This document shows, one piece after another, positions 32,883 to 64,000 of a DNA stretch of 64,000 bases. The position numbers and the translations under genes were made by a program. Where the stretch lies: NCBI GenBank assembly GCA_036172245.1, contig JAYWIR010000003.1, positions 186,001 to 250,000 on the forward strand. Direction: 5' to 3'. Positions within the stretch are counted from its first letter, which is position 1. Each line of letters begins with the position of its first letter. The notes under the pieces were generated by a model, which was given only the letters and a program-made list of their open reading frames with translations, did not search any database and was not told where the DNA came from. This DNA comes from Raillietiella orientalis (Eukaryota).

Positions 32883-33962
32883 AGGCAAGAGGACCCCGAC
32901 CGCCCTCACCTGCGTCCAGGCGTCCCACATCACCAGCACGTCCGCCGTGATCACCTGGCTGCCCAGCAACAGCAACTACCAGCACGCCGTGGTGGTGAAC
33001 AACGTCGAGGTCCGCGTCCTGAAGCCGGGCGTCTACCGCCACACCATCTCAGGCACGGGAAGGGGGGTGGGGGACGTCGCTATCCCGGGAGCGGGACCCA
33101 TGTTCCACGCTTCTTCCTTTGCAGGCCTCACTCCGGACACCCTGTACAAGGTGACCGTGCGCTCCAAGAACATCCCGCCTCCTGGCTACGGGGAGAGGCG
33201 CGTGGACGTGCCCACCACGGCGTGCGTCGAGTTTCGCACGCTGCGCAAAGGTACCAGTCGCCTCGTGCCGTTCCCTGCCCGGAGCGCGCGGAGATGGTGG
33301 GGGAGGGGCGCGGTAACCCCCGTTCTGTCTCCCGCAGGTCTCCCGGACTCGCCCACGAATGTGCAAGTGGAGCCCGGACCCCAGGACGACACCGTCCTCG
33401 TCACCTGGCAACCCGTCGCTCTCGACAAGCATGCGCTCGCCAGCATCAGCGCCGTCGTCGGCTACTCCGTGTACATGGATGGCAAGAAGGTCGCGGACGT
33501 GGACAGCCCCACGGGCGACCACGCCCTCATCGACATCGCCCAGTTTCCCGTGCCCAGCAAGGTCACCGTGCGGACCAGATCCAAGGACGGGCTGTCCGTC
33601 GACTCGCTTCCCGGCGTCGTACCCGACGCCATGGCCGGCTTCGCGAAGGGGGAAACCGAGGAGACGAAGAAGCCCTCGTCGTCTCCGCGCAAGGTACGCG
33701 TCGGAAAGGTGGGGGAGAGGGAGTTACGCAGGGGCGGCTGCGAGGTCCTCCCTCCGCTCCCTCGAGGGCGAGGCACTTGCCTCCTCCCATTTCCCTCTCT
33801 CTTTCTCCTCTTCCTCTACCTTTCTTCCTTCTTCTCCTTCCCTTTTCGTCCTTTTTGTCTTCCTTTCCTCCTCCTCTTTCTCTCTGTTTCTTCCCTGTTC
33901 CTCCTCCTCCTCCTTTTTCCTTCCTCTAGCCCCACTTCCTGCTCCCTCCCTTTTTTCCTTTC
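32883..33962 (+). pseudogene. Inverted partial duplicate of RIMBP (FN3-2/FN3-3 exons with introns)
   Basis: Reverse complement of 57613-58692. Starts mid-exon and retains both internal introns. By eye, only about 2 substitutions in the central ~950 bp. Confidence 0.9.
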
Positions 33963-34400
33963 CTTTCTCTTCCCGTTCCTTTCTTTCTCCTTATCCTTTT
34001 CCTCCCCTTTTTCCTATTCCTCTCTTCTTCTTCCTTTCCTCCTCCTCCTCCTTTTCCTTCTCTTTCTCCCTGTTTCCTCTTCCTTCCCTTCCTGTTCTTT
34101 CCTCTTCCTCCTCCTCTTTCTCTCCCTGTTTCCTCCTCCTCCTTTTCCTTTCCCTCTGCTCCACTTCCTGCTCTTTCCCTCCTTTCCTTCCCCTCCTCTT
34201 TCCCTTCCTTTCTTCCTCCTCTTTCTTCTCCTCCCTTCCTCTGACTGCTTTTTTTTTTTTTTCTTCTTCCTTCTCTTCCCTTCCTCCCCCTCGAGTGCGG
34301 CAGCTCAATGTCACGGATGATCATCTTTCGTCCTCGTCCTCCTCCTCTTTTCCCTTCCTTTCTTCCTTTTCCTCCTTTTCAAGCTCGTCTTTCTCCTCCT
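33780..34400 (+). repeat. Long polypyrimidine (C/T) low-complexity tract
   Basis: About 600 bp almost entirely C/T, with reiterated cctcctctttctctc / ccacttcctgct units. Confidence 0.9.
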
Positions 34401-41059: not shown

Positions 41060-41400
41060 GCTGAACACTCATTACATTGCTATTTTTTATTTTTTTCATT
41101 TCAACCTTTCAAGTCTTCATGTCCTGCTTGAACTTATGTGTAACTTCCTCAAGAGCGAGTTAAAAAAGTTCAACGTTTGGGGTTGGGTATTGGGCAAACC
41201 CACACTTGGCGACCTCTGTAAAGGAAGCGGACATCCCAACTTGCCTCGATTTGCATTCATCGTAACCTCTCGATTTCCTTCGGATGAGTTTTTACACCAA
41301 CCAAAGGTCCGAAAGAGAAGGGCGAAGACCACTCGGCGGAGACTGGAAACTGCCCTCCCCCCCACCAAATCTTCGGAAGCCGTCGTCGCAACACTTTTCC
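41060..41400 (+). mobile_element. Possible decayed LINE RT remnant
   Basis: LLELMCNFLKSELKKFNVWGWVLGKP...KGSGHPNLPRFAF resembles the segment around the RT PQG motif. Weak. Confidence 0.35.
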
Positions 41401-44400: not shown

Positions 44401-46799
44401 TAGCAGGAATGTTTGAAGGAGACGGCGGTAACGTTCCCGATGCAATCCCAGAGTGAGGACCACGACGGGCCTCTTCATCACAAGCATTGTGATGAGATAG
44501 ACCTACGTGAATCCACAGAGAAGTTCATCAAAGTCAGCAATCCAGATTCTGAAAGGACTAATACGCAAAGAAATTGGAATCAGGGAATGTGGGACTGGTG
44601 ATATGTCCAGGAGGGGACTCCTCCTGGACATATCGCACCGAAAAGGATAGGCGATGAGCGAGACTCCCGAGAGCCCTAAAGTGTGAATTCCAAACGACAG
44701 GAATCCCAATTCAGGAAACAAAAGGTGATAAAGTGCAGTGATAAAGGCGACGGGAACTTTTCCTCAGTTCTCTGTGGTTTGCTGTGGAAATGAATTTCAC
44801 CCCCGCCGCGTGCCAGGCGGGGCCCGGCATGCAAGAATGGCCGGAAAGAACCTCCCGTTCAATTTGTTCCCATGTATATGTGTTTTTAAAACATAAATGC
44901 ATAAAGATTTTCGAACAGCAGGGCGATGACTCTTGGATTGTGCTTTTGTTGCAGTTTGCAAAGAAAAGCGAATTTGGTTGATTATACGTATGTATGAACG
45001 GTGTTGCTATAACTGTCACAGTAATGTTTTCATGAAACATCTACGGCGTGAATTTTCGGAGGATGAAGGTGCATGTCGTAATTTTCAAAATTATATCATT
45101 TATAAGATTTTTATGCCAACGAGTCGAAATACGTGGTTAATTAAAAAGTCCAGGAATTTTTGGTGGGCTCACCTGTATATAGATATGCTAAATAAAAACC
45201 ACTGCTCATGTAGAGTACCAGCAGGCAGTAACATATGAAAGATGGAGCTGGGTTTGCAAATGTGAAGTCTCTGGGAAACCTTACAACTGAGAAACCCTTT
45301 CTCCCTAAAGTTCCATTCCATATCAGATGTTTTTGAAGTGGTTTTGCAAAGCACCAAATGTTAAGAGCCTTAACATAGGTGTGTTTGAGGAAACTAGCTT
45401 ATACAATCCTCCCCCTCCATCCAAATATTAGTGGAAATTAATTGGTAATAATCTGCTGTAATGTCCAGTAATGTTTTGTAAGGGAAGGGAAATGTTTGAA
45501 ATGCCTAAAGGAGCTACATGTGCACAATATTAAATGTGCCTCTTGTTCTGTATCTGTATAAATTGATTGCAAAGATCCAGATCTTTGCAATCAATTTATC
45601 TTTATGACTGCTACATTAGCCTACCACCTGTTCTCTAGTTTAACATAATATCACCATGATTGGTTAACCTTCTGGAGCTGAGTGTAAGGTTTCTGTGTTA
45701 AGATTCCATGCTAGAGATCTTGGTCATCATGAGAGAATTGATGAAACTTGAAGCTCCAGGGAATTAAGTGGTTAGGCATTTTTTTTTTTTTTTAGAAAAA
45801 CGGAACTGGAAGAATTTATAGATGTCTTGCACATCTACAAAAAGAGAACATTCAGAACGATGTATGAATGAGAAATAACTTTCTCATCACAGGAGCTTCC
45901 TTGTCAGCTTTCCTCGCTTGCACAATCTTCGCAATTTTTCCATCAAAGCTCTATGAATCACATTAGTCAAGCTTTGGTTTGGTTTATTTGTTGTATTGAA
46001 AATTTGTTGTTTTTTTCAATACAAAACTCAAATAGCCTCGGCTTCATTTATGTTAGATGGTGGGTGATCAAGGTAAGTCAAGGTTCCAACCTAAACCTGA
46101 TTGGAGAATGCCACAAGCACACCTTGGACCATAGTCCAAGGTGTACATTAGCCTCCCTGGGTTCTACAGGTTAGATGTCAATAGTTGTAGTAATGCACCA
46201 AGCAACCCGTTTGGCATAGTTGAAAATTTTTAACTACATTCAAATTCAAATTTAGCTCATTAAAACTGCATGTTTTCCCCTGTAACTTGTTAATTTATAT
46301 TGTGTCTGTAAAAAGCCCCATTGCCCATTCTACAATCATCCCAAGATTACAATACAAGATCTGTTGATTTAGAGATTTCTAGATCAGCTCCTTGTTCTTG
46401 GGATGACAATGACTTACCAAATCTTTTGTTTTAAGAGAGCTGAGAAAATGCAATCACCTAATGAAGCACAACAAATTAATTCGTGTTAAAACCGATTACA
46501 TTTGAATTTCGCCTCCAGATATGAGATCTCAAGCGTCTTACGCATCAAATAACTTTATGCACCCATAAAACTTGATTTTTCTTTTCAAGTTGCACTCGGG
46601 ACAGACGAACTTGCGTCTCCATCCCCTTAGTGTTAAGGCACTTTGAAGATACTCGGAGACACCTCCCAGTAGGGAAGTTTTGTACGTTATAACGTCGTGA
46701 TACTTTCTTGACTTTTACCAGATGTAGTAACTTTGATGTACCATACAGAACTCATTCATTTAATCGCATGTATTCGACGGCTTACATGAACTTTAACCA

Positions 46800-47520
46800 C
46801 CTTAAATGAATTTTTGGTTAGTCCGTTGAGCAGATTTTGCAGTCTCATTTTCCTGCTAAGATTGAAACAGCTGAATAACAGCATTCTAACAAACATTGTA
46901 AGCATTATAATTATTACGAATGTTCTCAGATCGTCTGCATCAGCAACGTGGTTTTTGTGGAAATCTACTTCGTGTAATGTAAACGAATTCTCCCGATGAG
47001 AACATTGCACCCCTGAATGCGACACTTCTTTTAAAATGCGCCTGGAATTCGAGGTGCTGAAAGTTGGGGTTACACGTGAATATGCCCAACTAATGTGGAA
47101 GGTTTTAATTTTGAATTTGAAGGCAGAGGCATATAACACGGGAACTGAATGCTTGTCGTCGAAGGGAAGAAATCTTTTGCATGCATTCCCGCAAAAGAGT
47201 GCCGTTCTCCATCCCAACGTCCATGGAGACTCTTGGATCACATATAGTAGGAAAAAGTCTTGATGAATAGGTTAACCAAACTACAAATGTGTGGATCGAA
47301 CTTTATGCCCACGCGGTTGTACTCTTCAAAAGTGTTTCATGCTGGGCAACCTGCATGAAACTTAAAAGATAGGTTAAAGCAGGTGTCAAGTCAAATGGTT
47401 TCAAAATAGAGGAATTATGTAAATACCGAGAAGCCAGGAATCGGTTGAACATTTTCAAAATTGGGAAATCGGACCTACGAAATTGGGAATTATGCAGATC
47501 CGTATCCGTCGGAACGACTT
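46800..47520 (+). mobile_element. Decayed LINE reverse-transcriptase remnant (different family from the Tx1-like copies)
   Basis: Ordered motifs VSPLS (ISLL), QQRGF (QxGF), FPQKSAVLHP (PQGSVLSP), LYAHAVVLF (YADD), KWFQNRG/VNTEK, KLGI (YLG), with frameshifts and stops. Confidence 0.7.
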
Positions 47521-49146
47521 CTGAAGCCAAATGAGCAAAAACATATGCATCCCTCGCGAGCACTTGGCACCGAAGGAGATTTCCGTTGCTGCGTTCGAGC
47601 ACAGCGAAGACGTTTAAGTAAAGGGAATCCGAGTGAGGCTGAGGTCCTTCTACTCAACCCCTTCTCTTATTAGATCGACGGTGTACAAAGGATGGAAAAG
47701 AAACGCTAGCCATCTTTGCCGTCAGAAAGCATTCGTCTCCGACGTGAAATGGGCGTTTCTGCTGAAGTCGGTGATGGCCGGGGAGTTTGGTGAAGGAAAA
47801 TGCTTGTAAATATTAAATGTTTGTTCAACATCTATCCATTACAGCTTCGAGTCGATGTTCGGGTGCAGTTTTCTACATATCTGAGCTTACCTCTATCTTG
47901 GGCGGATTTCTTAGAGCTTTAATTTTCGCAGAAAACAGATTGAATGGGTGATCGATACTGAGCGCTTCGATCTTCTGAGAGCCGTAATAGATTTGCATCG
48001 GTGGCACCATGCAATGTGAGAAACCTCAGAAAAGATTCAATTTCAAAAGCATGCCGAGCGTGCAAAGTTCATTCCTTGCCCCGAAGTGCTGTTTGCGCCA
48101 AACAGAGAGAGTCTCAAGAACTACACGGGCAAATGAATTTGATTTTATTGCAAAGATGAGCTTGTGGGCAGGGGAGGGTGGATTCTGGATCCCTTCGTTG
48201 TGCAACAGGGTTCGAAAGGAATGCTTTGAAAGGAACAGTTGCTGCCCATCCATCGGACTTGTGGTCGTTTATTCTCGCTTTAGCCCGTTTACGCGATTCG
48301 CGGAAGCACGAGACCGAATGCTTTCCATCCGAATCTTTCTTTTCTTTTCTTTTTCTTTTTTTTCTTACTTCGATTGAATTCAGAAAATTTCCCTGCCCAT
48401 AAGAATTTTCAGTAATCCTTCAAGGGTACGCTCTCCGTGAGCGGCCATCGTGCAACTATGGTTTCAAGCAAAAAAGACGTTGCCTGGTGAACGGAAGGAA
48501 TAGGCATCCATTTTTACCACAAAGCTCCTCGATACTTAAAATGGGTCAGCAGGGAAATGTAGTTATCCACGTATGAAACGGAAAAAAAGAAATATATATA
48601 TATATGAAAGATGAAGGTGTGCTCTCCGTCCAGAGCTAAGGGAACGCCGGAGCAGGGAGATACGTGAAGGGAATGGGAACCAATGGATCGAGGACGGAGA
48701 AAGCAGCAGGGATGGGGGGGGGGGGAGGAATCGGGCGGATTCGTGTGTGTTTGGACCTCTTTCGTCCCCTCTGCGCTCCACCCCCCCCTGATTTCGCCGG
48801 GAGTAGTCCGATCCGGTCCATCCGCAAGCAGGCCGAGCACAAGGCAGGTGCTGCCCTGAGGCCGGTGCCGCTGCCAAGGGCAACAGCAGCGACAATGGGC
48901 AGCGAAGAACCGTCTGGCTGACCGGTGGCTATCGATCGCAGGTCGCGGCGGCGGAACCCACGCCCGTTTGCCGCATTAGCCTTTCGCAGAGTGCTCTCGC
49001 ATGGAGGCTGTCTGGTCCGGGGGCGCGGAGATCAAGTCATGAGACACGGAAACTGCGTCAAGCTGCCCCTGAGCCCGGCTGCGAGGCTGTCTTTCCGGAG
49101 GCTGTGCTTCCCGCGTGCGCCGAGGAAGGAAAGGCGTGCGCGAAAA

Positions 49147-50690
49147 ATGAGGGCCATCCATATTCTATTGAGGCTTGGCAAAATGCTCGATATCGGTGGC
49201 AAGCTGCTGATAGCAGCTGATTTATTCCTGTCAAGTAAGTGTTTGCCATAATTCCGGACAATTCGGTTAGGTGGATTGATCGGTTCGGGTGTGCATCTGA
49301 ATAAATAATGCTGCTCGCATGGAGCTGCCATCCTGGCATATTAACGGTTGTTTATAGCCGAATCGGAAAATTCGAAAATCAATGTATTTGCCAAAGCATC
49401 TTCCTTTCCGCAGCCGGAATCTCCGGTCTGCAGCGAGGTAATCAAGTTACCAAAAATCAGGTAGCGAATATATTCAAGAAAAGGGGGGGGGGGGAAACCG
49501 CTTTTCATGTAACGCTGTGACCAGCATCCCCTTTCGTTTTGCACCATCGCAGAGCACGAGAGAACCCAATCGGAGAGGGATGTTTGAGACTCGAGAGACT
49601 GCTCGTTTCTTTTCTGCTAGCGTTAAGGCTGCAAGTTTTTATGGCAACTTTGTATGCACGCATCCTATAGATTATGTGGCGGTGGCAGTGGAATGCGTTA
49701 TAGAGAGTGGGAACATATGCACAACTCCATGGAATTACGAAGACGATGTTTTGGAATACTGCGGATACACCCTCTTTTTCTATAAGTATTTCTTGAAAAG
49801 AGACGCGTTGCTGGAGTCGTACTCCTACGTGAACAAGGAATCCTATCCAAGGTACTTGAGCATCTGCGAACGCCTAGTACGGTGCTCTTTCTGCGTGAGC
49901 AACTACCGGCACTGCACCGGTCAAAAGGGTGTCGATGGATTTGGAGTGGACGAAACGAAACAAAAGAACTTGCTGAGGACGACGATCGTCTTCTGCGACC
50001 TTGCCGTTGACCTGAGGAACGGTATCTTGTGGCAAAAGGAAGTGTTTTTTTTTTTTTTTTCTGACACGATGACACAGCGCTCAGGTTGCCTTCCCTATCT
50101 TTGGCTGATGAAAGAAGCTCTCTCTCCAATGTCATCGAGCGTTATTCCTGCTATCTGGACTTACTCGAAGCGTTTTCCGACTGCCAGATAAAGTTCCTCA
50201 AGGAGGTGCAATGCAAAGTGTCATTCTTCAACTTGGATACCATATACAACGTTGATTCGTGGTCATTCTTTTGCTGGTGACTACCTTGCATCCCTAGGCA
50301 TTCCTATCCTTTGTTTTCCAGCCCGGTATCTCTTAAGAGATCTTGCTACAGTGCGGTCAATTGGAAAGAAGGGAATACCTGCCGCAAATTCTCTTCGGAT
50401 CTGGAAAAGAACTTTTTTAAGGGCGGCCTATCGAGGGTGCAGGTGAGTGAAGCAGACGTGTTCCGCACAAGTGCCTGCAGGCGGAATTGGGTTGTCACGA
50501 GTACGATGAAGCAGAATGCAACCAAACGGATTACTGCGTCTGGATCGCAAAGCTCACGGAGGATGAGCACAAGCAATACAGGATACAGATGCAAGGATAC
50601 AGGCAGACCCTCCGGAAGCGGAAATTCCGCTTTTGCCAAGGGAAACCTCAGCATTCCTACCCAACTCTACATCGTTCCGACGTTCAGTAA
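49147..50690 (+). CDS. Unassigned Cys-rich, probably secreted protein (five-exon model, roughly 320 aa)
   Basis: Phase-consistent GT-AG model 49147-49234, 49671-50021, 50078-50276, 50322-50442, 50481-50690. The last three introns are 56, 45 and 38 nt, similar to POFUT1. AATAAA at 50731. The first exon and start (49147 or 49183) are less certain. Confidence 0.7.
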
Positions 50691-50722
50691 AAGTTTTTTC
50701 CCCAGCTGTTATAAATATAAAT

Positions 50723-50736
50723 TTTATTTTAATAAA
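50723..50736. terminator. Back-to-back polyadenylation signals (TTTATT-TT-AATAAA)
   Basis: AATAAA on + at 50731-50736 and on - at 50723-50728, between two convergent stop codons. Confidence 0.55.
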
Positions 50737-50869
50737 GATATCAAAGTATCCAAAAAAAGGGGAAGAAAACCAATGAGATTTAACAACAAAGGCACTCACG
50801 ACATTGATACAGCTGTGAGATCGTAAATTTAACTTCCGTGTGTATTTTTTCAGATCCAGAACCTTTCCT

Positions 50870-53800
50870 CTAACAGCTACCAGTCTTTTTCCTGCTGGTA
50901 GAATTCTTCTTTCCTTCGTTCGCTTTGCTTCGTTCTGAAATCACACAGACGAGGGAGTTTCCCTCAAAGTCCACTCGGGACGGCGGAATGGCCGTGCAGA
51001 GCACCATCCAAACATTCCGCCAAATCATAGGACGAAAGGAGCAAAAACGAAACATTCAGATGCGATCGGTCGCGCCCGCAGCCTCCAAGAATCTTTCGCT
51101 CGTCGGATGCGATTCTTGGAATTTCCCGGAAATTCCAGAGGGAAGCGTGTTTTTTTTTTTGTTTTTTGCTTTCATTTTTCTCATTTGAAGGAATTCTTGG
51201 AAACTTTTCAGAAGTTGCAAAAGTACCTTCCGGTCGCGGAAGAATTTCTTCCAGACGACTTTTATGAGGACTTTTAAGGAGCGCTTGACGGAATGCATCT
51301 CACTGGATGTTCCAGATGCTGGAAGAAACCGCTCGCGGGCGCGCCCGAATGCGCTTCCAGAGGAGCCCGGAGGGCGAGATTTCCCTGTTTCTCTGTGGGG
51401 TCTGTGAGCGGGCAAGCAGTGTCGAAGGCCAATTTCCAAAGGAAGTGCGTCCGAAGCGATCACTTCGGAAACCGTGCACGTGCTGCCGCGCACCGCGTTT
51501 GCACCACAGCGCGAAGGTGTCGGTGGATCTTCGGATCCGTCTCGGAACGGGTGCGCGCCCACGCCTTGGCCAGCATAGGTGTTTGGGAGCGGACGGCAGG
51601 AAAGGCCCAGCAAGAGCGGGAGCGGAGATCCCCTTGCCACCTTCTTGAGAAAGCAGCGGCGGCTGCCTCTCTGGATGTCGGCGAAGAGCTCCATGGGAAA
51701 CCCCCCGAGTGGAGGAGGAGGTACTTGTGGAAGAACTCGCCCAGACAAGCGGAATGCCTCCCTCACCCTCCTTCCTCCGCCCCCACGTGGCCGCTCAAGG
51801 AGCGCAGCTTTTGCGTTTTCGGTCCAAGATGCCATCCGCTTCCCCCCACCCCCATTCGGAAAATCGAAATCTTCGTGTAACCGTAAATTTTCCGTTTCGG
51901 CTGGGGGCCCCACGGCACACGTAGGCGCACCTGGCCGTTCGCGGAACGCAGGGTCACCGCAGACGCCAGGGCTGGGAGGTCGAGCAACTCGCGAGAGCCC
52001 CATCGGACCGGCGGAGAGGCCCTCTGGACTTTTCCCGGCGACGTTCCCGTCGCGAGGGAAGTGCCGGCTCGACCGTGAATTACTCCTCGACTCCCGAGGG
52101 CTTGTGAAGCGCAGCTCTCCGGGACTCATGGGGGACCTTAGCCCGAGCCGCAGCGTGCCGAACAGCCCAGCCGGGAGCGGCTCGTCGAGACGTGCCAGAC
52201 ACGCCGATCCCTGCTCCGCGCGTGTCAAACTCAAAGCGCGGCGGCGGATCCAGAAGATGCCGAGCACGCGCGCGTCCCGGCGAAGAGGAATCGAACCGCG
52301 TCCGCTCCACCTGAAGCCGCCGACTGGGGAAGCACGCGGGACTCCACGCGCCCCGGGAAGAGAGCGACGACGGGAAATCCTTGTTTCCTCCCCCCTCCCT
52401 TCCCCCGGTTTCATTGGTTTTCCTTCCAGATTTTATTTTCCTTTCTTTCTTTCCTTCCGGGTTGTCCTTCCCTTTTTCGGGGATGGGGTTCCAAGGAGTG
52501 CCGAGGCACCGCTCGCCGCCTGGCGGCTCACGCAGCTCCTTGAGGGCGAGGACGGCGAGCCGTCCGGGTGCGCGTGCGTTCTTGAGAGGACGACCCCCCT
52601 CCCTTCCCTTCCTCCCTTCAAAAAACATGAGTGTACTCGCAGGTGACCTCAAGTAACTCGCTGGGTCTTCCGAGGTGATGGGATCGGTTCAGCGGCAAGC
52701 AACAAACAGCCCCTCAAGTAGACGGCAGCCCGCTTACCGTCGCCGTGTTCCTCTTGATACGGGTGACCATGGTTCGTGGCCTTTGAACTGTATTCTGGTA
52801 CTTCGGCCAAGAAGTTGGAAGGAACCAGGCCCCGTACTCCATGCAGTTCTCCCATGTAGAAGCCATCGTCGTCCATGTCACCATACACATCGATCATGTC
52901 TCCCGTGCGGAAGCGCAGCTCCACCTACCGGACCACAATCAGCGAAAGATTCCACGCTTTGAGCACCCCAGATTTTTCGACCCTTCTTTTGGGGAGGAGG
53001 AGGGAGATGGGTGGAGAAATCTGCGATTCTTAGCGAGGCGCATGGGGGCCTCGCCGGCATTTCCGCGACACGTGAAGCTCCTTCTTTTCCCTCATCCCGT
53101 TCCTGCCTCTCTCCGGACCCGCGAGCTGCTGCGGGAGGGGAGACGCCCTCCGTCCATCGCGCCAAATGCTCTTCCCCATTCCTTCCTCCTCTCTCCACTT
53201 CCAGCGCTCCCGGAGGCAACGGATCTGCAGTGCAAGATCGACATGCTGGAGGTTCCCGGGATCGGCAGGTGCTACGTCTACGTCGCCAAGTGAGGGGACT
53301 CTCTCCCCTCTCCCCCCCCCGCTGTTTCCCTCGTCCCTCTGACACCGTCTCTCCGACCCCAGGTACTCCTACGACCCGCTCCTGCACTCCCCCAACGAGA
53401 ATCCAGAAACGGAGCTGCGCCTGAACGAGGGGGATTTCATCTTGGTGTGGGGAGAGATGGACGAGGTAACGGCGCGCGCTGCTCCCCCTTCCCTCCCTCT
53501 TTCCTTCCGCGTTTCCGCTGTTGCCTCCGTTTCCGGGGGATATGCGGCAGCCGGTCCCGGGGACAGGTAGGTACCCCTTAGGGCGCTCCCGACTTTCCCG
53601 GCGTCGGAGAGCAATCTTCCTCCGCGAAGTTCTTCCTCCCTTTCTTACCCTTCCTCTTACTTCCGGAGGATCATGCGAGCCCACCGCGGACGGATGGACA
53701 GGGCGGTGCGGTAGGAGGAGGAGGGAAAAGAGGACGGCTGGTTCCGTGAACGAAGAGCCGCTCTGCAGCCCGTGTCTCCGTCGGACGCAGCAGCACTTGG

Positions 53801-56800
53801 CGCGCAACGAATTTCGCCCACTCACGTGAGGACCATCTTGGTGTGCAGGAGCAGATAGGTGCGGAGACTCCTCTCCTTCCTTCCTTGTCGCCGTTCTCGC
53901 CCCTGATGGATGCGCTCGCGAAATGCGAGATGAGGATGACCCAGGATGATGCCGCTCGATCGTCTTCCATCGGGAGCTTTCCGTCTTTTCGAGCTTTCTC
54001 TCGGGCGTAAGAAGACACGAAACCGGGAGAGAAGCAAGGAGATGAACTGCCGCGCGGGGGTCGCATGCCATAAGGCCTTCCGTTTGGAGGTCAGAGTTGT
54101 TGCTGCTGCTGCCGCGTTGCGGTTCGTCTACGAGGAGGTCGGTTCGGATTCATCACGTGACGACGTCACATCTTGCGACGTGACGCAAGCCCAGGATGGT
54201 GCTGTCGGGACTCCGCTTCCAAGATGATCAGAGAGAATCGCCCGAGGGGACTTCTTCCTCGCTCGCAGCTGGGGGAACTCGCCCGAACGAACCTGCTGGT
54301 TGCGTGTTTGCCGTGGGTAGGCAGCGACCACCAGGTCCGCGCCAGCCAGAGTGCTCCGTTAACGTCTCATGCAGAGGAAAAGAGCCATAGGATGCTCAGA
54401 GTCCTAGGAAAACGCCCGTGGGGAGCAGGCGGGAGCTCACTGGTCATTCGGGGAGGAGAGGATCGAGGCGTTTGGAGATGCGTTTTTCCGTAGATATGGG
54501 ACGAGAGTCTCCACCGCGAGCACGAACTGACTGTGCGCTGCGCCAGCAGCAGCCACTCTTTGACGACCGCCAGTCTCGAGGGAAGCCAGTCCGATGCAGT
54601 GCAACGGTGGGCGTTGGTCTTCCGAGAGATACGCGAAACCACTTCCATCCGTTGCTCCTAAACTCCGACACGGACCGCGCCCTCCCTTCAGAGAACATTC
54701 CGGAAAAAACCAAGTTTTCTTTCGAAGGTTCCTCTTCTCAGAGCAAACTGAGCTGGAACCATCGTCAGCTGGGGTCTCTGGCAGTGCCATCGTCGTCCTC
54801 CGAGACGGCAGAGACTCGGCAGAGCGACAGTTTTCTTCCCTCCTTGCAGGACGACGATTTCCGAATTCTCGGACAGGCATTGCGAAGGATCGAGGGGAGT
54901 CCAGAAGTCCTTTCTTACCCCGAAGTTAAAGGTCCCCTCTCCTAAGTCCTCGTCTCTCTCAGCTTGCATGCCTCAGGAATCCACCGCCGCAGTGGCACCA
55001 CGAGGATGATGGGTGCAGCCTCGGTGTCCTCAGCGCGTTTCGAAAGTCCCTCGGTGGGCAGCGCGCGTCCCGCTCTTGCATCCTTGGCACCTCAGCTTTC
55101 CCTATTCCTTCGCTCTTCCCGCAGTGGATAAGTCGTTGAGTGCGGTTCGTTGCTTCTTTGCCGGTCCGCAAAAGGAGCTGATCTTCTTCTGTGAGGGTTC
55201 CTCTACGGTTCTTTTCCTTTCCCCTTTTGCCGCAGAAGCGTTTCAAATCTCACCGTCCAGCAGACTGACTTGAGATGAAACAAAGTTACCTCTGCCAGCT
55301 TCTTCTTCATCTCCGTGTGTGGAGAGCCACGCAGGATGCTTCCTCCATCTTCGACGATGTGACTTCATGTGCTTCTAATCCCACCCCACTCCCTCCCACC
55401 GAACACAAAGCTCCCTATTGGAGATCGCCATTCTCATGCGTGTGGATGGAAGGAACCGCAATGTTCGCAGTCCACAGCAGGTCAGCGTGCCATTTTCCGC
55501 TGCTCGGTCCATTCCTCTTATCCTTCCATGTTCGCTCGTCCAGCTTTCTCCTCGAGCCTCCCGTTCTTTTTCGCCCAGGGCTTCTCGGAGGAAGAGGTTC
55601 TCTCTCATCCTGGGATCGCATCTCTCGGGGCTTCGGCTTCTCCTCTGATACGGTGACGTTCCATCCTCCAGGACACCAGGTCAGGGAGCGCCACTCTGCC
55701 GGGCGTATCCCGTGTGGAGGAGGCGAGAGCTCCGGTTACGACATAGAGGAAAGCAGCCTGGTGCTAACACCGCCAATGTGGTGCATCCTCGCGTTGCCAT
55801 TGCATCCAAAAGCTTGCAGCACTTAGATTCGACACCTTACCAGCTGCATCGTAGCCCCGGTGATGGAGGGGATCCTGTTTGAGCCCGGACCTCTTCGCGC
55901 GCCCGTGAAGACTCCAGTAGCCGGGGAGCTGCACGATGCAGTGGGACACCGCCTTTCGTTTCATGGCATCCCGGGTCTCTTCGAGGAAGCGCCTAAGCCT
56001 CTATTTGAACCAGGCGGAAGGTAGTCTTTGTCAAACCACTCTCAGCTCCCTCTGATCCCGCTGCAGAATGAACGGCCATCGCCTTCCCGGAGCACGCCAT
56101 CCCTTTCACGGAAGTTCTCCGACGACAGACTTGACCTCCCTCCCTTCCCCCCAGAGCAGTTCCGCCCCTACTCCTGCGCTGAGCGCATGCTCCTCTAGCG
56201 AGCAGCACGTCCTTCGAGTGGTCTTGACCGCCCACGGATCCGTGGGGCGCGTGTGGGGAGGAGAGCGTCGAAGGGCAGAGCTACCGCTGTTTCCGCACCA
56301 CGACAACGACCAACCGGCTGTCATCGAGAGCGAAGAATCAAATTCTTGCACAGGGGGAATAGAAAGGGAGGAGAAAGGGAGGAAGGGAAGAAGAGAGGAG
56401 GCGGAGAGACTCACTGTGGGGAGATCAAAGCAAACCACGGCCGCTGCCGCTCTGGCAGCCCTTTCCAATCGCCACCCCAACTCATCATTACCTCCGCGTC
56501 CACATTGGGCGACAGCTCTCGGGGGTCGTAGTCGTAGAGGGCGACCATCTTCCTGACGGGCATGCAGGCGTAGATGTCCCCCCACCGGTCGTGCTTGCCA
56601 CCCCGGTGGCTCGCCTCCTTGAGCAGTTCCTGGGCGATGGTCTCGTCGTCGATCTGCACCTCGCTGACCATGTTGCAAGGCACGTAACCCTTCAGGCCAT
56701 TGGCTTCGCCCCAGAAGAACCCGTCTGGGTCCTTGTCCCCGTAGATCTGCAAGTGAGGAGAGGAAAAGAAGGGAATATGGCTCTCTTTCCCGTGAGAGGT

Positions 56801-59800
56801 ATGCTAGTCCACTCTGGGAGGCGGACGCACCCTCGCTTGCGCACCAACCTTGATAAGGTCTCCTTCCCTAAAGGGCAGCTCCTCCTCGCACGCGCCCGGG
56901 TTGGGGGACATGGAGGGAGGGTCGTAGTCGAAGAGAGCCACGAAGATCCTGGTCCTCTCGGTGGAGGAGGGGGCCTCCCACTGCTTCTTCGGGTGCCGGT
57001 CCGGGGCTTGGGAGGAAGGGACCCCCGCCACAGGCTCCATCGCCGCGTGCCTCCTGGGTTTGCGGTGGTGGTGGTGGGACCTTACCCTCTCCAGCGCGGC
57101 CTCTCCGTCCGGGTGATGGTGCTTCGAGGGATTCACCTTCCCGTTCACCGTGTCGTGCGTTATCTCTGTTGGGAGGACGCCCCACGCTGCGCGCAACTGC
57201 CTGCGACCACACACAGCCCTCACGGACCTATAGAAGGGATCGGTCTCCTTTCCTGGGGGTACACCTCCTTGTCGCTGAGGTTCTCCTCCGTCTCCAAAGT
57301 CACGTGGTTCTCCAAGTTGCTCCGCCTGTGGCTCCCGTCCTCCTGGGAAACAACCTTGTAGGACTTGGAGACGGTCGCGGTTTCCTTCACTCCGTTCTTC
57401 TTGCCGTGATCCTTCTCTTTGGACGCGGGCTTCTGGAGCTGGTAACGAAGAGGATTGATCCCCACTGCGGCCGGAAACGACCAACATTTTCTCTCCCTCC
57501 CGCCAATGGAGCTCCCCTGTCCGAGGGAACGTTCCCACGTTGGAGGTTCGCGCATGGCGCGAGTCTCCAGCGTGGCTACGAGGATGAAAAGAGAAGGAAG
57601 AGAAGGAGGAAGAAAGGAAAAAAGGGAGGGAGCAGGAAGTGGGGCTGGAGGAAGGAAAAAGGAGGAGGAGAAGGAAACAGGGAAGAAACGGAGAGAAAGA
57701 GGAGGAGGAAAGGAAGACAAAAAGGACGAAAAGGGAAGGAGAAGAAGGAAGAAAGGTAGAGGAAGAGGAGAAAGAGAGAGGGAAATGGGAGGAGGCAAGT
57801 GCCTCGCCCTCGAGGGAGCGGAGGGAGGACCTCGCAGCCGCCCCTGCGTAACTCCCTCTCCCCCACCTTTCCGACGCGTACCTTGCGCGGAGACGACGAG
57901 GGCTTCTTCGTCTCCTCGGTTTCCCCCTTCGCGATGCCGGCCATGGCGTCGGGTACGACGCCGGGAAGCGAGTCGACGGACAGCCCGTCCTTGGATCTGG
58001 TCCGCACGGTGACCTTGCTGGGCACGGGAAACTGGGCGATGTCGATGAGGGCGTGGTCGCCCGTGGGGCTGTCCACGTCCGCGACCTTCTTGCCATCCAT
58101 GTACACGGAGTAGCCGACGACGGCGCTGATGCTGGCGAGCGCATGCTTGTCGAGAGCGACGGGTTGCCAGGTGACGAGGACGGTGTCGTCCTGGGGTCCG
58201 GGCTCCACTTGCACATTCGTGGGCGAGTCCGGGAGACCTGCGGGAGACAGAACGGGGGTTACCGCGCCCCTCCCCCACCATCTCCGCGCGCTCCGGGCAG
58301 GGAACGGCACGAGGCGACCGGTACCTTTGCGCAGCGTGCGAAACTCGACGCACGCCGTGGTGGGCACGTCCACGCGCCTCTCCCCGTAGCCAGGAGGCGG
58401 GATGTTCTTGGAGCGCACGGTCACCTTGTACAGGGTGTCCGGAGTGAGGCCTGCAAAGGAAGAAGCGTGGAACATGGGTCCCGCTCCCGGGATAGCGACG
58501 TCCCCCACCCCCCTTCCCGTGCCTGAGATGGTGTGGCGGTAGACGCCCGGCTTCAGGACGCGGACCTCGACGTTGTTCACCACCACGGCGTGCTGGTAGT
58601 TGCTGTTGCTGGGCAGCCAGGTGATCACGGCGGACGTGCTGGTGATGTGGGACGCCTGGACGCAAGTGGGGGCGGTCGGGATTCTCTTGCCTATGATCAT
58701 GGTGCAGGCGGCATCCGTGGACGTCCTCCTGTTCGCGGTCACGGAGCGTACGCTGACGCGGTGGATCTGTGGCGGCGGAGGGACGCCGGTGAGCACGGCG
58801 ACCACGAGTACCGCCACGGATACGCACCTTGGAGAGGTCGATGTTTTCCACCAGGGCGCGGGTCTTCTCCGTCGCCTTGACGACGTTCCTGAGGATGCCA
58901 TCCACGTAGACGTAGTAGTATTCGATGCCGCAGTCGTCTCCCTGGGCCGGGCTCCAGCGCAGCAGCACGCTTTTGTTGAGCTGCCTCTCCAGAACGAGCT
59001 GCTGCGGGGGCTCCACCAGCGTGGAGAAGAACATCTCTGGAGACAGAGAGGAGGAGGAGGAGATGTCGCAGTCCTCGTCTTCTCGTCCGCCCGCCCGAGA
59101 GAGCGAGAAGGAGGGAGCGAGGGAGCGTGCCGCGAGCATCCTGAGTCGTGCGGATGCGTCTTCGAGGGTCGCTGCCTGCAAAGAGGCGAGCGCCGTGCGC
59201 TGGCCGTGGGTGCGGACGGGGTGGGAGAGGTGAGGGCCCGAAGGGGGAGCCTCTTCCGCCACCGCCGCCGCAGCCACCTTCGCTGCAACCCACGCGCAAG
59301 CAGCTGGAGACGCGGCGCTGCAGCCTGCGGCTGTTCCGCGTGTCCCCACCGCGAGTCGTCGTGCCCGGCAGCGGAGGCGCTGCCTGTGTCGCGGCACGCA
59401 GGATACCGGGCCTTCCTTCCCTGTGGCTCCCGCCGTCGAAGACCCTTCTCGTCCGTCCCGCGTGCTGCTGCTCGTCTGCGCGGGAGCAGAGGCGGATTGC
59501 CGCGGGCATACTGGCAGGGCAGGAGCGGCAAGGGGCTGCACCCTTGCCCCCACGGTGACTCCAGTCTGTCCCTGCAAATGAAGGAGAGGCTACGAGGCTA
59601 CGAGGAGGAAAGGAGGAGGAGAAGGAGGGAAGGAGAGGAGAGGAAAGGAAGAGGAGGAGTGGGAAAAGAGGAGAGGGAGGAGAAGGAAGAAGAAAGGAAG
59701 GAAAGGAGAGGAGGAGGGAGCAGGAAATGGAGCAGGAGGAAGTTAAAAGGGAGAAAGAAACAGAGAGAGAAAGAGGAAGAGGAGGATGAAAGGAAAGGAA

Positions 59801-62800
59801 GAAAAGGAGGAGGAAAAAGGGAGGAGGAAGACGACATCGTCCTCCTCCTCCCTTTGGTCTCATCCACCCCCTCTGCGAGCTCTGCTCCTCTGCCACGTGC
59901 CGCTCGACCTCTTCGCCACCTGGCCGCTCGCATTGCTCGTGCCGCCGCCGCATGGACCGGTGCGCTTTTCTTCTTCTACACCAATCCTTGCCTCCTCTCC
60001 CCCTCCCCTGTCCTGCAATCGCGTGAGCTGTGGATTGTCTGACTTCTCCCTTTCTAAAAATGCGCGCATACCGCTCGCCGGGCCGAGTCGGTATCATCGT
60101 CGGGCGTTGCTGCCGGCAGCGGGGACTTCTCGTCAGCTCACCCGCTTTCCAGAGGATGGTGGTCCCCGATCGCCGGACTCCCGGAAGAAATCAGTCTCCT
60201 TCCCGCGAGGAGATCGCTTCTAATCCCTCTTTCACCCACCTTCCGTCGGCGACCTTCCCCACTCATTCATGCCCTCTTGGGCTTCCCAAGGGATGTCCCG
60301 TTGCCACGGTTCCCGTAGAGGATGCGAGAGCGCAGTCGGAGGGAGGCTGTCGCGCCCAGGAAGGTGTTCAGGGGTTTCCAGGAGCTTCGTGCGCATTTCC
60401 AGTGCTGCTGGAGATGGGAAGAAAGGAGTGACAGAGGGGCGACTGTGGGAGGGCTTGCTCGTGCTTGCGAGCAGCCTCGCTAGTCGTAGGAGAGGAAGAG
60501 GGAATGTGAGGGAGCGAAGGTCCCAGAAGAGGAAGGCTGAGGGCCCGGAAATCCAGGAGTGGACATTGATCCTCCGGTAGCCCAGGACCTCCTCTTCCTG
60601 GTGACCCTTGTACCCACGGATCTTTCAGCGGCGTGTTTCCGGGAAGACGCCTTCCCCACCGAGCGTAGGAAATTCCTTCTTTTTCCTCCCTCTCCTTCCT
60701 CACCTCCTCATCCTCCCTATGTTCCTTTCTCCCTCCTTCCCTGCATCCCTTTGCTTTCAGAAACCTCCAAGCCGGTCTCCTCAGAGGATTCCAAGCGCCC
60801 CTTCCCAGAAAGAGACCCCTCTCAGCCTCTTCCCAGATTCGCCTTCCGGAAGGCGTGGTCCCCTTGCTCCCTGTCTCCCTCCGCCCCACTGCTCCTCCCA
60901 TCGACTCTTGAGAGAACTGATCCTCACCGTTGTTTCTGGGCTCCTGCTGGTGGTCTTCGAAGTCCTCGATGTCGAAGAAGTAGCAGTCGAAGCGCCGGAA
61001 GTCTTCTGCAAGGACATCGGGATCGCTGAGCAGGGAGACTTCCGAAGGAGGGGGCAAGAGGAAGAAGGGAAGACAGAGGCGAAGAGGACAGGAGGTTCTC
61101 TCGGAGGGAGACGCGCGCACCTGTTGGAGGTGCCCTCCTCCCCTTCCTCCGCGGTTCACGGCGGGCAGAATAGGGTGGAGTCAGAGGACAGGGTTGGACT
61201 TCTTCCTTACCCGTGAGGAAGCTCTTGAGCTCTTCCATGGCGTCCAGCTCAGGGTCCTCCCCTGGGTGGCCGCAGCGCTCCTGCTGCTCTCTGAGCCTCC
61301 GGACCACGGCCTGGTGGAAGTGGATGAGATCCCTGCCCACCACCTGCTCCACGAAGTTGGAAGGGACGAGCCCCCGGCGTCCGTCTAAGAGCTCGCCATC
61401 GAAGTACCCGTCCTTCATCCCGAAAGAAAGAGGAAGAAGGGATGTTAGCAGTAGCAGGAAGGAAAGAAGGGATCAAGGACGGCGCGGCGATCACACCGTT
61501 CCCCCTGGGGCGGGCGCCAAGACGACCTTCCTCTTCCCCCTCCTCCTCCGCCCAAACCGATCGGGCGATTCCACCCCTCTTTTCCTCATCTGCTCTTCCC
61601 CTCTGCCTCCTCCCGGTTCCTCAGCAATCCTCTACCCCCTTCCTTGCCTACCCTTCATAGGGAACCCTGGGATATTCACGAAACCGGGAGCTTCGATCTC
61701 CGAGAAACGGAGGGAAAAGGGAGGTCAGTCCTTGACCCTTAACCTTGATCTCTTATCCCTCCCAGCGGTTGTCTCTCCCTGGGAGGAAGAGAAATCTCGA
61801 CGGGAAATCGCAGCCATCCCTTATTTGAAAAAAAAAAAAAGGGAAAGGGAAGGAAAGGACCCTTCCCGCTTCCCAACCCATCACCCTCTCCCATCATTCT
61901 CCCTAAGCACCCTTTCGGGGTTCGGGACAGCACCGGACGCTCCTTCCATCGAGACCCTGCTGTAAGGGTGCCCCTCATCCCCTGCTCTGGGGTACTCCCC
62001 CGTACGTACCACGGAACGCGCACAAGGGGCCCCAAGACTCTCTTAAGGATTCCTCGGTCCTTCGCCTTTCCGACCGCGGGAGGGTGCAGGAACGACCTGA
62101 TACGGCCCTCCCCTCCAAGGGAGGGCTTTTTCGGCCGCCTCGGAGTGGTCTTCGCCCCCAACCCGAACCTGAAGACGCAGCAGGCACTGGACCGCGGGCT
62201 GCCGTCGCCGCGAGGGAGACGGAAGCTGAGTTTCCGGGAAGACGGGAGACCACTGGAGAGGAAGGGGAGAGGAGGGGGAAAAGCCTTTTCGTGAAAAAGC
62301 CTTTTCCTTCTTTCCGAGTTCCGTCGTCCTCCCTCAGAGGATGAGGGCAGGGGAGCACCCACCGCGTGGGGAGACAAAGGATGCCACGCCTTCGTCCCGT
62401 TGGTCCTGTCACCCTGCTCCCAAGGAAGGCACTCCCTCCTCGCAGAAACGGCTCCTGGGAGGCGTTTCCCTGCAGCCCCCTACCGTACCGCCCTGTCCAT
62501 CCGTCCGCGGTGAGCTCGCATGATCCTCCGGAAGTAAGAGGAAGGGTAAGAAAGGGAGGAAGAACTTCGCGGAGGAAGATTGCTCTCCGACGCCGGGAAA
62601 GCCGGGAGCGCCCTAAGGGGTACCTACCTGTCCCCGGGACCGGCTGCCGCATATCCCCCGGAAACGGAGGCAACAGCGGAAACGCGGAAGGAAAGAGGGA
62701 GGGAAGGGGGAGCAGCGCGCGCCGTTACCTCGTCCATCTCTCCCCACACCAAGATGAAATCCCCCTCGTTCAGGCGCAGCTCCGTTTCTGGATTCTCGTT

Positions 62801-64000
62801 GGGGGAGTGCAGGAGCGGGTCGTAGGAGTACCTGGGGTCGGAGAGACGGTGTCAGAGGGACGAGGGAAACAGCGGGGGGGGGAGAGGGGAGAGAGTCCCC
62901 TCACTTGGCGACGTAGACGTAGCACCTGCCGATCCCGGGAACCTCCAGCATGTCGATCTTGCACTGCAGATCCGTTGCCTCCGGGAGCGCTGGAAGTGGA
63001 GAGAGGAGGAAGGAATGGGGGAGAGCATTTCGCGCGATGGCCGGAGGGCGTCGCCCCTCCCGCAGCAGCTCACGGGTCCGGAGAGGGGCAGGAATGGGAT
63101 GACGGACGGGGAAAAGGATGATGGAAAAGGGGGGGTCACGCGTTCCAGGCGCGCGGGCAAACTGCCGCCTCCAGGCAGATGGGGACTACTTACCTTTCGC
63201 TCCCGTGTTGCCATGGGCGCTCGCTCCTGGTGGTTCCCTAGCGACAGTGATCTCCTCCTTCGCTGGGACGACCACCGAGAGCTCGGGGGCCGTCGCCACG
63301 TGCTTCTTGCCGGGAAGATCCGTCTGGCTGCAGCCTGCAAGGGAGGAGCAGGGCGGCGGGGGATTCCGAAACCGGGATGCGGAACGGGAGGGTGCAGCAG
63401 GTCTTCCCGGCTGGACCGGAGAAGGCGCGGGGAGAGACCGCAGGGTTGCCGCCCTCTCACCTTCGGTGGAGCTGTCCGGAAGCGGGCGCAAAGGGGGGGC
63501 GGGCAGGACCTGCCCCGACCTTCCCCTGGGCCCGCCTCCGTTCAGCTGCGGGGGCGGCGGCTCCATGCCGAGCTCGTGTCGCAGGCCGGTCACGTTGTCC
63601 AGCTTTCTGTCCAGTTCATCAGCCAGGTGGTTGACCCTGTCGATGCCCATGTCCAGGGCGCTGGGCAGCTCTGCACGGGAAGAGGGGGAAGGGGGGCAAG
63701 AGAAGCAGGGGGCCAGTGGGGAGCGTGGGGAAAGGTCGCAGGGGGCTGAGGCACCGACCGTGGTTGGACGAAGAGGGTAGCCGCCTCCGCGCTCCGTGGT
63801 CCACCGTGTTGCCTCCTCCTCCTCCTCCTCCTGGCTGGCACGCGAAACCTGAAGCACGCGCGGGACTGAAGAAGGAAAACGGAACCCCTCCTCCACCCCT
63901 CCCCGCCCCACCTGGACCCCTCCGCGGGCCCCGCCCACCTTTCTTGATGGCTGCCAGGTCCAGCATCAGCTCTTCGTGAAGCACCCCCTGCAGCTCGCTC
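50870..64000 (-). CDS. RIMBP2: RIMS-binding protein (RIM-BP/RBP; SH3-FN3x3-SH3-SH3), 5' part outside the window
   Basis: Phase-consistent exons (minus): >64000-63939, 63848-63759, 63670-63461, 63334-63194, 62989-62905, 62831-62729, 61412-61211, 61005-60928, 59036-58828, 58766-58523, 58450-58325, 58237-57882, 57575-57539, 57464-57228, 57165-56849, 56746-56492, 52924-52738, and putative last exon 50934-50870. Motifs: [18 protein letters not shown]...[87 protein letters not shown]...[13 protein letters not shown]...GLVPSNFL. The terminal exon is tentative; the symbol denotes the closest family member. Confidence 0.95.
51280..51780 (+). mobile_element. Probable decayed LINE ORF2 fragment inside the last RIMBP intron
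   Basis: 51650-51725 resembles 18705-18770 of the Tx1-like fragment. Confidence 0.35.
53092..53715 (+). repeat. Inverted duplicate of RIMBP SH3-1 exon block, lying antisense within a RIMBP intron
   Basis: Reverse complement of 62479-63102. Contains exon copies 53205-53289 and 53363-53465 with intact splice sites. Confidence 0.95.
57590..57795 (+). repeat. Polypurine (A/G) tract in RIMBP intron
   Basis: Directly visible. Contains one end of the duplicated block. Confidence 0.85.
59600..59832 (+). repeat. Polypurine (A/G) tract in RIMBP intron
   Basis: Directly visible. Shares units (gggagcaggaa, aaacagagaga) with the other purine/pyrimidine tracts. Confidence 0.85.

Follow-up and report, generated by a model that had tools for sequence, protein, structure and literature searches.

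A RIM-binding-protein (RIM-BP) gene on the minus strand of the 64-kb window (the whole stretch of 64,000 nucleotides analysed here) is accompanied by two inverted copies of parts of itself, and we think it probable that both are real and rather old duplications made at the level of DNA, whose cores have been homogenised by gene conversion and whose capacity to fold is mostly incidental. The RIM-BP gene is the source of both inverted pairs (IR1 and IR2), found within 30 kb and each recovered by independent methods (repeat search and blastn). Of the twelve distinct self-matches in the window, no others are more than 90% identical over more than 100 nt.

The host gene is recognised by its order of domains, SH3, three FN3/Ig, SH3 and SH3, together with the RIMBP-specific Ig-like domain. 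Pfam returned Ig_RIMBP2 (E = 4.9e-32) as well as fn3, SH3_2 and SH3_9, the PDB matches were 6q9m (E = 4e-58) and 2csp (E = 1.8e-12), and the gene is collinear in tblastn with nine arthropod RIM-BPs, with which no further RIM-BP pieces were found in the window. Among the matches listed, the closest relatives share only 39-49% identity, and those that are named are all arthropod by species name (119 of 120 rows, and the named rows among 37), which suggests a probable arthropod affiliation. Between FN3-3 and SH3-2 the sequence shows no conservation. A metagenome scan with an exact 33-mer of exon b (one of the exons described below) gave 0 matches, a second with a protein pattern gave 297 pattern matches of which 0 were confirmed, and among 118 candidates for an IER-like ORF none was found at E <= 1e-5. 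The gene model includes the following intron and exon block:

52925..56491, minus strand: host intron splitting SH3-3 (donor 56492/GT, acceptor AG/52924, tblastn)
56492..61412, minus strand: exon block enclosed by the arms of IR1 (Pfam, PDB, tblastn, splice borders)

The enclosed block carries the end of SH3-1, the three FN3/Ig domains, SH3-2 and the first half of SH3-3. An acceptor AG/61412 is present, and donor 56492/GT and the acceptors AG/52924 and AG/61412 all border between codons, which bears out the proposal, made in an earlier sequence-only reading, that the block is in phase 0 at both ends.

IR1 joins a parental segment of this gene (arm B) to an inverted copy of it (arm A) in the intron that splits SH3-3:

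62465..63106, minus strand: arm B, parental segment (repeat search, self-blastn, tblastn with arthropod RIM-BPs)
62989-62905, minus strand: SH3-1 exon a in arm B, 85 nt (peptide mapping, alignment)
62831-62729, minus strand: SH3-1 exon b in arm B, 103 nt (peptide mapping, alignment)
53088..53729, plus strand: arm A, inverted copy (repeat search, self-blastn)
53205-53289 and 53363-53465, plus strand: exon copies in arm A (alignment)

A repeat search over 50000-64000 returned IR1 as the single inverted pair, with 53088-53729 the reverse complement of 62465-63106 over 642 nt, 97% complementary and with 8735 nt between the arms. Comparison of the window with itself by blastn aligned the arms at 97.7% identity across 642 columns (14 mismatches, 1 gap), at an E value of 0.0 that excludes a chance origin of the match; under stricter scoring 62479-63106 aligned with 53715-53088 over 628 nt with 11 mismatches and no gap, and the homology of arm A is secure over 53088-53715. 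The sequence-only reading had paired 53092-53715 with 62479-63102, and this pairing is confirmed, with coordinates that agree exactly at one end of each arm and to within 4 nt at the opposite end. Its estimate of about 3 mismatches in a 540-bp core was exact, as arm A differs from arm B by three substitutions (at 53592, 53681 and 53708) in the 542 nt of 53174-53715, and it was right to place two SH3-1 exons and flanking intron in the copy: on the minus strand the peptide LPEATDLQ...YVYVAK maps to 62987-62904 and YSYDPLL...WGEMDE to 62830-62729, and the AG and GT borders of both exons are seen in the alignment of the arms. Arm B also includes the 73-nt intron that separates exons a and b, along with flanking intron. 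The sense strand of arm A is the plus strand, and it is antisense in the minus-strand pre-mRNA. Both arms fall between exons of one predicted RIM-BP gene model (tblastn), in agreement with the suggestion that they share a gene at a spacing of about 8.8 kb, and according to this model one pre-mRNA should contain them both. The end of arm B lies 1053 nt upstream of acceptor 61412, the start of arm A lies 2763 nt downstream of donor 56492, and arm A stops 164 nt upstream of the acceptor of the host intron.

IR2 repeats this arrangement with another part of the gene:

57581..58692, minus strand: parental segment of copy C (repeat search, tblastn)
32883..33991, plus strand: copy C, a second inverted RIM-BP fragment with FN3/Ig exons and introns (self-blastn)

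The pair agrees over 1107 nt at 98.6% (98.5-99%), with about 11 substitutions, and copy C lies about 24 kb from its parent. It falls outside the RIM-BP gene body as far as this is recognised, about 19 kb past the final exon, with 16 poly(A)-signal hexamers between the two. The left breakpoint of the parental segment (58692) falls within a coding exon and the right one in a GA-rich intronic low-complexity tract (57584-57800), while the right end of copy C passes into CT-rich low-complexity sequence. Pfam searches of ORFs elsewhere in the window gave 2 matches for 120 ORFs and, for 82 ORFs, a single match, which is copy C.

The differences between copies and parents are not uniformly distributed, as is seen most clearly in IR1:

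53174..53591, unstranded: perfect 418-nt run between the arms, putative recent gene-conversion tract (alignment, permutation)
53088..53173, unstranded: left edge of arm A, diverged by 9.3% (8 substitutions in 86 nt)

The perfect run takes in the two exon copies with their intervening intron as well as flanking intron, and is longer than expected (P = 5e-5, 200,000 permutations); the corresponding longest-run permutation test for IR2 was not significant (P = 0.13). In IR1 the left edge differs at 8 of 86 positions against 3 of 542 in the rest, and in IR2 at 4 of 28 against 2 of 974 interior positions (Fisher test, post hoc, P = 7e-6), although for both Fisher tests the segments were picked after the data had been seen and the diverged edges are only 86 and 28 nt long. 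Because the edges differ by about 9-14%, the copies do not appear to be young, and we propose that gene conversion with the parental exons has homogenised the interiors and so accounts for the perfect 418-nt core. In the palindromes of the Y chromosome, gene conversion between the arms is established as the process that maintains near-identity of inverted repeats (PMC3723533), and the edge-clustered divergence of both copies is typical of neutral gene conversion. Error-prone synthesis at the breakpoints is rejected as a cause of the mismatches at the edges, since 9-14% is far above the error rates of break-induced replication.

Several features of the breakpoints bear on how the copies arose. 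They were copied as DNA and not retro-copied, because introns are retained and the breakpoints are arbitrary, one of them lying inside an exon; a retro-copy is ruled out by the retained introns. The left junction of arm A has a CTTTTCCC-type stretch in common with the parental flank. A single, larger inverted duplication that was later split is ruled out as well, because the order of arm A (at 53 kb) and copy C (at 33 kb) on the plus strand is opposite to that expected of one inverted copy of 63106-57581. What we propose is that a 630-640-bp piece of the RIM-BP gene, with two SH3-1 exons and introns, was duplicated in inverted orientation into the SH3-3 intron of the same gene, most likely when a local template switch or ectopic repair made use of short CT/GA-rich microhomologies, and that the interiors of the copies would later have been made alike to the parental exons by gene conversion. 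As a by-product, the unspliced pre-mRNA could fold back over about 630 bp, and exons a and b, once joined, would still be able to pair with the intronic arm A over 187 bp, in a manner resembling that of an exon and its editing-complementary sequence (ECS). If there is any effect at the level of RNA, it would most likely consist in transient access of ADAR to the SH3-1 exons or in low-level back-splicing or exon skipping, rather than in an evolved switch.

It is unlikely, in our judgement, that the inverted fragments are absent from the genome and stem from chimeras formed in long reads or during amplification, or from gaps that were filled wrongly. The composition of the region (58-66% G+C with long GA/CT low-complexity tracts), the presence of two inverted fragments of one gene within 30 kb, and junctions at short microhomologies, which are also used by polymerase template-switch chimeras, would fit such an error. 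However, both fragments are cleanly inserted, each with two junctions beyond which unique flanks continue, and the window is without N. Relative to their parents, the copies carry 14 and about 11 changes, mainly substitutions, concentrated at the edges, and this argues against an artefact of chimeric or duplicated reads, because one made from the same DNA should be identical to it or show randomly spread errors. Homogenisation of the interiors by short-read polishing is ruled out, as it needs a uniformly low true divergence, which the edges contradict. A 13-nt motif from the loop of a sequencing adapter is found at neither junction; its sole match, with one mismatch, lies at 27898-27913.

The pairing potential of IR1 raises the question of function. 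In silico, the full arms cofold at -1494 kcal/mol with 631 intermolecular pairs, and the 188-nt spliced exons a and b form 187 intermolecular pairs with arm A. One may then suppose an evolved cis-regulatory hairpin, in which the fold-back circularises the enclosed exons, recruits ADAR to SH3-1, or feeds endo-siRNAs that tune RIM-BP output, but we hold this to be decidedly unlikely. The geometry fits that of circRNA loci driven by reverse-complementary matches (RCMs), with complements upstream of an acceptor (61412, arm B) and downstream of a donor (56492, arm A) and with borders between codons, though an arm B that is partly exonic is atypical; an exon and its intronic complement in the same predicted pre-mRNA, the pairing of exon and ECS on which ADAR acts, are likewise found in silico, and the predicted duplex is very stable. 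RCMs promote back-splicing and exon skipping (PMC8330042), ADARs act on RCMs (PMC8938519), exon-intron pairing defines editing sites (PMC1920255), and the hairpin RNAs (hpRNAs) of Drosophila are proposed to derive from their targets (PMC10317233). The copy also seems to have persisted, its edges diverging while its core stayed identical, but gene conversion explains the identity of the core without selection.

The order of transcription also speaks against such a device. Arm B is transcribed at least 8.7 kb ahead of arm A and its exons are split by an intron of only 73 nt, so masking of their splice sites and back-splicing to 61412 would need unusually slow splicing; by what is generally known of co-transcriptional splicing, the exons of arm B should be spliced minutes before arm A is synthesised, and splice-site masking and efficient back-splicing are unlikely. 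Arm A itself exists only from its synthesis until its intron is removed, and the 3' splice site follows 164 nt later. Exons a and b hold 41 A's, and a long, perfect duplex would be expected to lead to their promiscuous editing, which is more likely to be harmful than tuned. The location of copy C, about 19 kb past the last recognised exon, indicates that the copying process is not specific to a useful position, and the idea of a dedicated device is weakened because copy C lies outside the recognised gene body and the divergence is clustered at the edges. The presence of two antisense-oriented copies of one synaptic gene could nevertheless be a sign of selection for antisense material. In a more elaborate version, which we find very doubtful, the antisense exon copies would constitute a built-in dsRNA module, with arm A folding back onto the SH3-1 exons of the nascent transcript so as to recruit ADAR or drive an open-frame circRNA from 56492 to 61412, and with the guide kept perfectly matched by gene conversion with the working exons; transcription of copy C from the minus strand, should it occur, would make this copy a second antisense trigger. 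Were this true, the regulatory hairpin would be part of the gene itself and would update itself.

Movement of the fragments by a non-autonomous DNA element, Pack-MULE-like or Helitron-like, with arm A as its cargo, is highly improbable. The introns that are kept and the arbitrary breakpoints resemble those of captured fragments, and a complementary pair lies at the ends of arm A:

53083..53097, unstranded: 15 nt at the left junction of arm A, 14/15 complementary to 53717-53731

The partner, 53717-53731, sits just past the right junction. This pair could be a short insertion-site palindrome, a TIR-like end, or chance in CT/GA-rich sequence, and chance is the likely origin because its GA patch pairs with two other CT-rich sites too (53179-53191 and 53325-53336). 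No target-site duplication is seen at arm A, copy C is without a terminal inverted pair at both its ends, and the flanks of the two copies have no sequence in common, so that neither TIRs with a TSD nor Helitron ends are common to the copies. Pfam gave no match for any of 22 ORFs of the host intron or of 63 ORFs around copy C, and so no transposase or RT domain, and Rfam returned no family across the whole window; the results for the host intron and from Rfam uphold the view that arm A was built from the gene's own exons, and introns, rather than from a transposon.

Inverted extragenic copies of the factor VIII intron 22 and intron 1 repeats are known. As in these repeats and in the Y palindromes, recombination between the arms could invert the enclosed segment. 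IR1 and IR2 share with the human Y palindromes (PMC3723533) a very high arm identity, a non-uniform divergence that suggests conversion tracts, and the location of one arm in a gene. The arms here differ from both systems in being only 0.64 and 1.1 kb long and in consisting of coding exons of the host gene, and both arms of IR1 lie inside one transcription unit.

The circular RNA of mouse Sry is an example of a circularised exon that is flanked by RCMs. In RCM circRNA loci (PMC8330042 and PMC8938519) several exons are enclosed between long complementary sequences, which lie downstream of the donor and upstream of the acceptor, as they do in IR1. Known RCMs, however, are mostly intronic transposon copies, whereas the upstream arm of IR1 includes two exons that look constitutive, and 8.7 kb separate its arms. 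The duplexes of exon and ECS edited by ADAR (PMC1920255) also pair an exon with an intronic complement in the pre-mRNA and must act before the intron is removed, but the known ones are short, imperfect and usually formed with the adjacent intron, in contrast to the perfect pairing of 85 + 103 bp predicted here with an intron several exons downstream. With hpRNA endo-siRNA loci (PMC10317233) IR1 shares antisense material that comes from inverted duplication of a potential target gene. Both arms of an hpRNA lie in a separate non-coding transcript, whereas one arm of IR1 is a functioning gene. There are also plant miRNA genes that were born by inverted duplication of their targets.

If the copies are real, they offer a compact example from nature of an inverted repeat that derives from exons and lies in a conserved presynaptic scaffold gene. 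It could then be measured how far co-transcriptional splicing shields exons from an antisense intron segment that is made later, whether a perfect exon-intron duplex of 85-103 bp is tolerated, edited or circularising in neurons, and how gene conversion with exons under selection keeps a non-coding copy identical. If they are a neutral by-product or an artefact, they call mainly for caution in annotation, where exons duplicated on the other strand can lead gene prediction and read mapping astray. IR1 may also represent a standing risk of inversion for the enclosed exon block, through which null alleles could arise recurrently.

An inverted-repeat search of 50000-64000 found a sole inverted pair, 53088-53729 against 62465-63106, of 642 nt and 97% complementary, with 8735 nt between its arms. 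We call the parental SH3-1 segment of the RIM-binding-protein (RIM-BP) gene arm B (minus strand), its inverted copy in the SH3-3 intron arm A (plus strand), and the pair IR1. When the window was compared with itself by blastn, IR1 showed 97.7% identity over 642 columns (14 mismatches and 1 gap) or, with stricter scoring, 11 mismatches and no gaps over 628 nt (62479-63106 against 53715-53088). The inverted antisense exon copy proposed in the sequence-only reading is therefore borne out, its coordinates exact at one end of each arm and at most 4 nt off at the other, and our analysis adds a second inverted RIM-BP fragment, copy C. Base-by-base comparison, with which a MAFFT alignment of the arms agrees, gave the following pattern in arm A.

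53088-53173: left edge, 8 substitutions
53174-53591: perfect run of 418 nt, 0 substitutions
53592, 53681, 53708: isolated substitutions
53716 onward: end of homology, differences dense

The three isolated substitutions are exactly the "about 3 mismatches" that had been counted by eye in a 540-bp core.

Six of the nine minus-strand stop-to-stop ORFs in 52.6-64 kb match Pfam families at E <= 0.01; three ORFs lie above the curated cut-offs (Ig_RIMBP2, E = 4.9e-32, with fn3; SH3_2; SH3_2 with SH3_9), and tblastn gives collinear minus-strand matches from 63999 to ~52625 with nine arthropod RIM-BPs. The FN3 ORF matches the solved FN3 array of the Drosophila RIM-binding protein (6q9m, E = 4e-58) and the human RIM-BP2 structure 2csp (E = 1.8e-12). 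Protein searches with the FN3 region (191 matches among 3754 candidates, the best 120 of the 191 being listed; in a second search, 37 matches at E <= 1e-40 among 6169 candidates) gave relatives with 39-49% identity at best, and the species-named RIM-BP relatives among the matches listed are, judged by their names, all arthropods. The exons and borders that concern IR1 are as follows.

62989-62905, minus: exon a of SH3-1, in arm B (MAFFT alignment, peptide mapping)
62831-62729, minus: exon b of SH3-1, in arm B (MAFFT alignment, peptide mapping)
61412, minus: acceptor, GAAG/GACGGG
56492, minus: donor, GAG/GTAATG
52924, minus: acceptor, GGTAG/GTGGAG

Arm B thus holds two SH3-1 exons, as had been claimed, with a 73-nt intron between them. 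SH3-3 is split over two exons, one ending at 56492 and the next starting at 52924, and the 3567-nt intron between them contains arm A, whose end lies 164 nt upstream of the acceptor. Since arm A is inside this intron and arm B holds SH3-1 exons, a single pre-mRNA should contain both, arm B being transcribed before arm A. Peptide mapping places the borders at 56492, 52924 and 61412 between codons, with splice signals present, and because both borders of the putative circle are in phase, the frame around it would be open. A possible donor at 52739 (minus strand, GACG/GTAAGC), ~185 nt into the exon starting at 52924, suggests that the gene may not end at the read-through stop at 52649 but extend to another 3' exon, as yet unrecognised.

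Copy C and its parent, together IR2, were found by self-blastn to be reverse complements.

32883-33991, plus: copy C
57581-58692, minus: parental segment in RIM-BP

Their identity is 98.6% over 1107 columns, or 99.1% over 1081 with stricter scoring. Copy C contains FN3/Ig exons with their introns, and Pfam recognises Ig_RIMBP2 in its plus-strand ORF 32767-34317 (E = 1.1e-31), with which tblastn agrees. Copy C breaks off on the left within a coding exon and fades out on the right in a CT-rich low-complexity stretch, expanded when compared with the GA-rich tract of the parental intron. It lies ~19 kb past the last recognised RIM-BP exon, with 16 minus-strand AATAAA/ATTAAA hexamers in between; none of 63 short ORFs around it has a Pfam domain. 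Of the window's 12 distinct self-matches, none besides IR1 and IR2 is both longer than 100 nt and more than 90% identical. Arm A and copy C lie on the plus strand in the order opposite to that expected from one inverted copy of 63106-57581, and therefore represent separate events.

The second-FN3-domain intron at 58522-58451 (minus strand) seems to be of the GC-AG type (TCAG/GCACGG ... TTTGCAG/GCCTC); no other reading leaves the FN3 motif in frame, and the intron is identical in copy C. The region from 28 to 38 kb around copy C has 59-65% G+C without a Pfam-recognisable gene.

The differences within IR1 are strongly uneven: the left edge has 8/86 (9.3%) and the remainder 3/542 (0.55%). When 11 differences were permuted over 628 nt, a fraction of 5e-5 of 200,000 permutations reached a perfect run of 418 nt. 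IR2 has 4 differences in its first 28 nt against 2 in the next 974, and many at its right end, inside low-complexity sequence; its longest-run permutation test does not reach significance (P = 0.13). Fisher tests of edge against interior are significant (P = 1e-5 and 7e-6), for segments picked after seeing the data. Assuming a mutation rate of a few 1e-9 per site and generation, ~9% edge divergence, resting on n = 8 substitutions only, would mean millions of generations. We consider it probable that these are real, fairly old local inverted RIM-BP duplications whose cores gene conversion has kept identical, and that the pre-mRNA fold-back is a by-product. Conversion would have homogenised the interiors of older duplicates with parental sequence, reaching the ends of the homology block less often and leaving diverged edges; arm-to-arm conversion is well documented for inverted repeats (PMC3723533). 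The locus falls within known kinds, namely inverted duplications homogenised by gene conversion and potential reverse-complementary matches. An assembly artefact is unlikely, because a chimeric or doubly placed read should yield identical copies or randomly scattered errors, whereas what is seen is two clean insertions with substitutions crowded at either edge.

Cofolded in silico as minus-strand RNA, the arms reach -1494 kcal/mol with 631 intermolecular pairs, against -252 and -278.5 kcal/mol when folded singly. Complementary flanks are reported to promote back-splicing and exon skipping (PMC8330042), such duplexes to be acted on by ADARs (PMC8938519), exon-intron pairing to define editing sites (PMC1920255), and Drosophila hairpin-RNA loci have been proposed to originate from their own targets (PMC10317233). 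An evolved regulatory hairpin, as the sequence-only reading had suggested, is still less likely than an artefact. Kinetics would count against splice-site masking and back-splicing. Arm B precedes arm A in the transcript by at least 8.7 kb, and from the general kinetics of co-transcriptional splicing the 73-nt intron should have been spliced by the time arm A appears, as should, probably, the 1.3-kb intron upstream of 61412. Masking of the splice sites of exons a and b, and back-splicing onto the 61412 acceptor, should therefore be inefficient, and arm A can itself be removed once transcription has passed the acceptor that follows it by 164 nt. A short-lived, ECS-like duplex between the joined SH3-1 exons and intronic arm A is plausible: the spliced 188-nt exons, which contain 41 adenosines, form 187 pairs with arm A on cofolding (net gain ~-258 kcal/mol). 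A limited literature search gave nothing specific on circular RNA of RIM-binding protein; two reviews mention both terms, once each.

Capture by a transposon is very improbable, given that none of the 22 ORFs in the SH3-3 host intron yielded a protein domain, that arm A and copy C share no flanks in the self-blastn of the window, and that no target-site duplication was seen at arm A. Returning to local duplication, the copies were made from DNA, because their introns are kept. Local strand-switching replication or repair could have produced both, which fits the CTTTTCCC-type stretch shared by the left junction of arm A and the parental flank, and the polypurine/polypyrimidine breakpoint of copy C. 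At its two ends arm A has a 15-nt pair, 53083-53097 and 53717-53731, complementary at 14/15 positions. Chance in low-complexity sequence is a fair account of this pair, since its GA-rich patch finds partners at two further CT-rich sites within arm A; otherwise, a short palindrome may have served as the insertion site. No Rfam families were found in the window, and nothing related to the locus in a metagenome collection.

GA-rich low-complexity tracts at 57584-57800 and 59600-59831 (purine-rich on the plus strand, CT-rich on the gene strand) lie in RIM-BP introns and flank FN3 exons; one such tract holds a breakpoint of copy C and is expanded in the copy, where 33806-34242 is pyrimidine-rich (plus strand). 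Long GA/CT tracts can form triplex DNA, and they may make the RIM-BP locus prone to rearrangement.

Elsewhere, 986-1584, 10327-11094, 18886-18993 and 29575-29695 form an older repeat family or local duplication. Here 10480-11094 is an inverted counterpart of 986-1584, with which it shares 78-84% identity, and shorter pieces are found again at 18.9 kb, in direct orientation, and at 29.6 kb. The ORFs of at least 110 aa that overlap this repeat have no Pfam domains. Two plus-strand ORFs match GDP-fucose protein O-fucosyltransferase (25220-25639, E = 2.4e-11) and the immediate-early-response (IER) family (26935-27621, E = 1.7e-17), the latter with no relatives at E <= 1e-5 in a large protein collection. 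Between blocks of about 60-65% G+C lies an AT-rich island (40000-48000, 41-44% G+C) with short near-perfect palindromes at 44600-44634 and 45558-45599.
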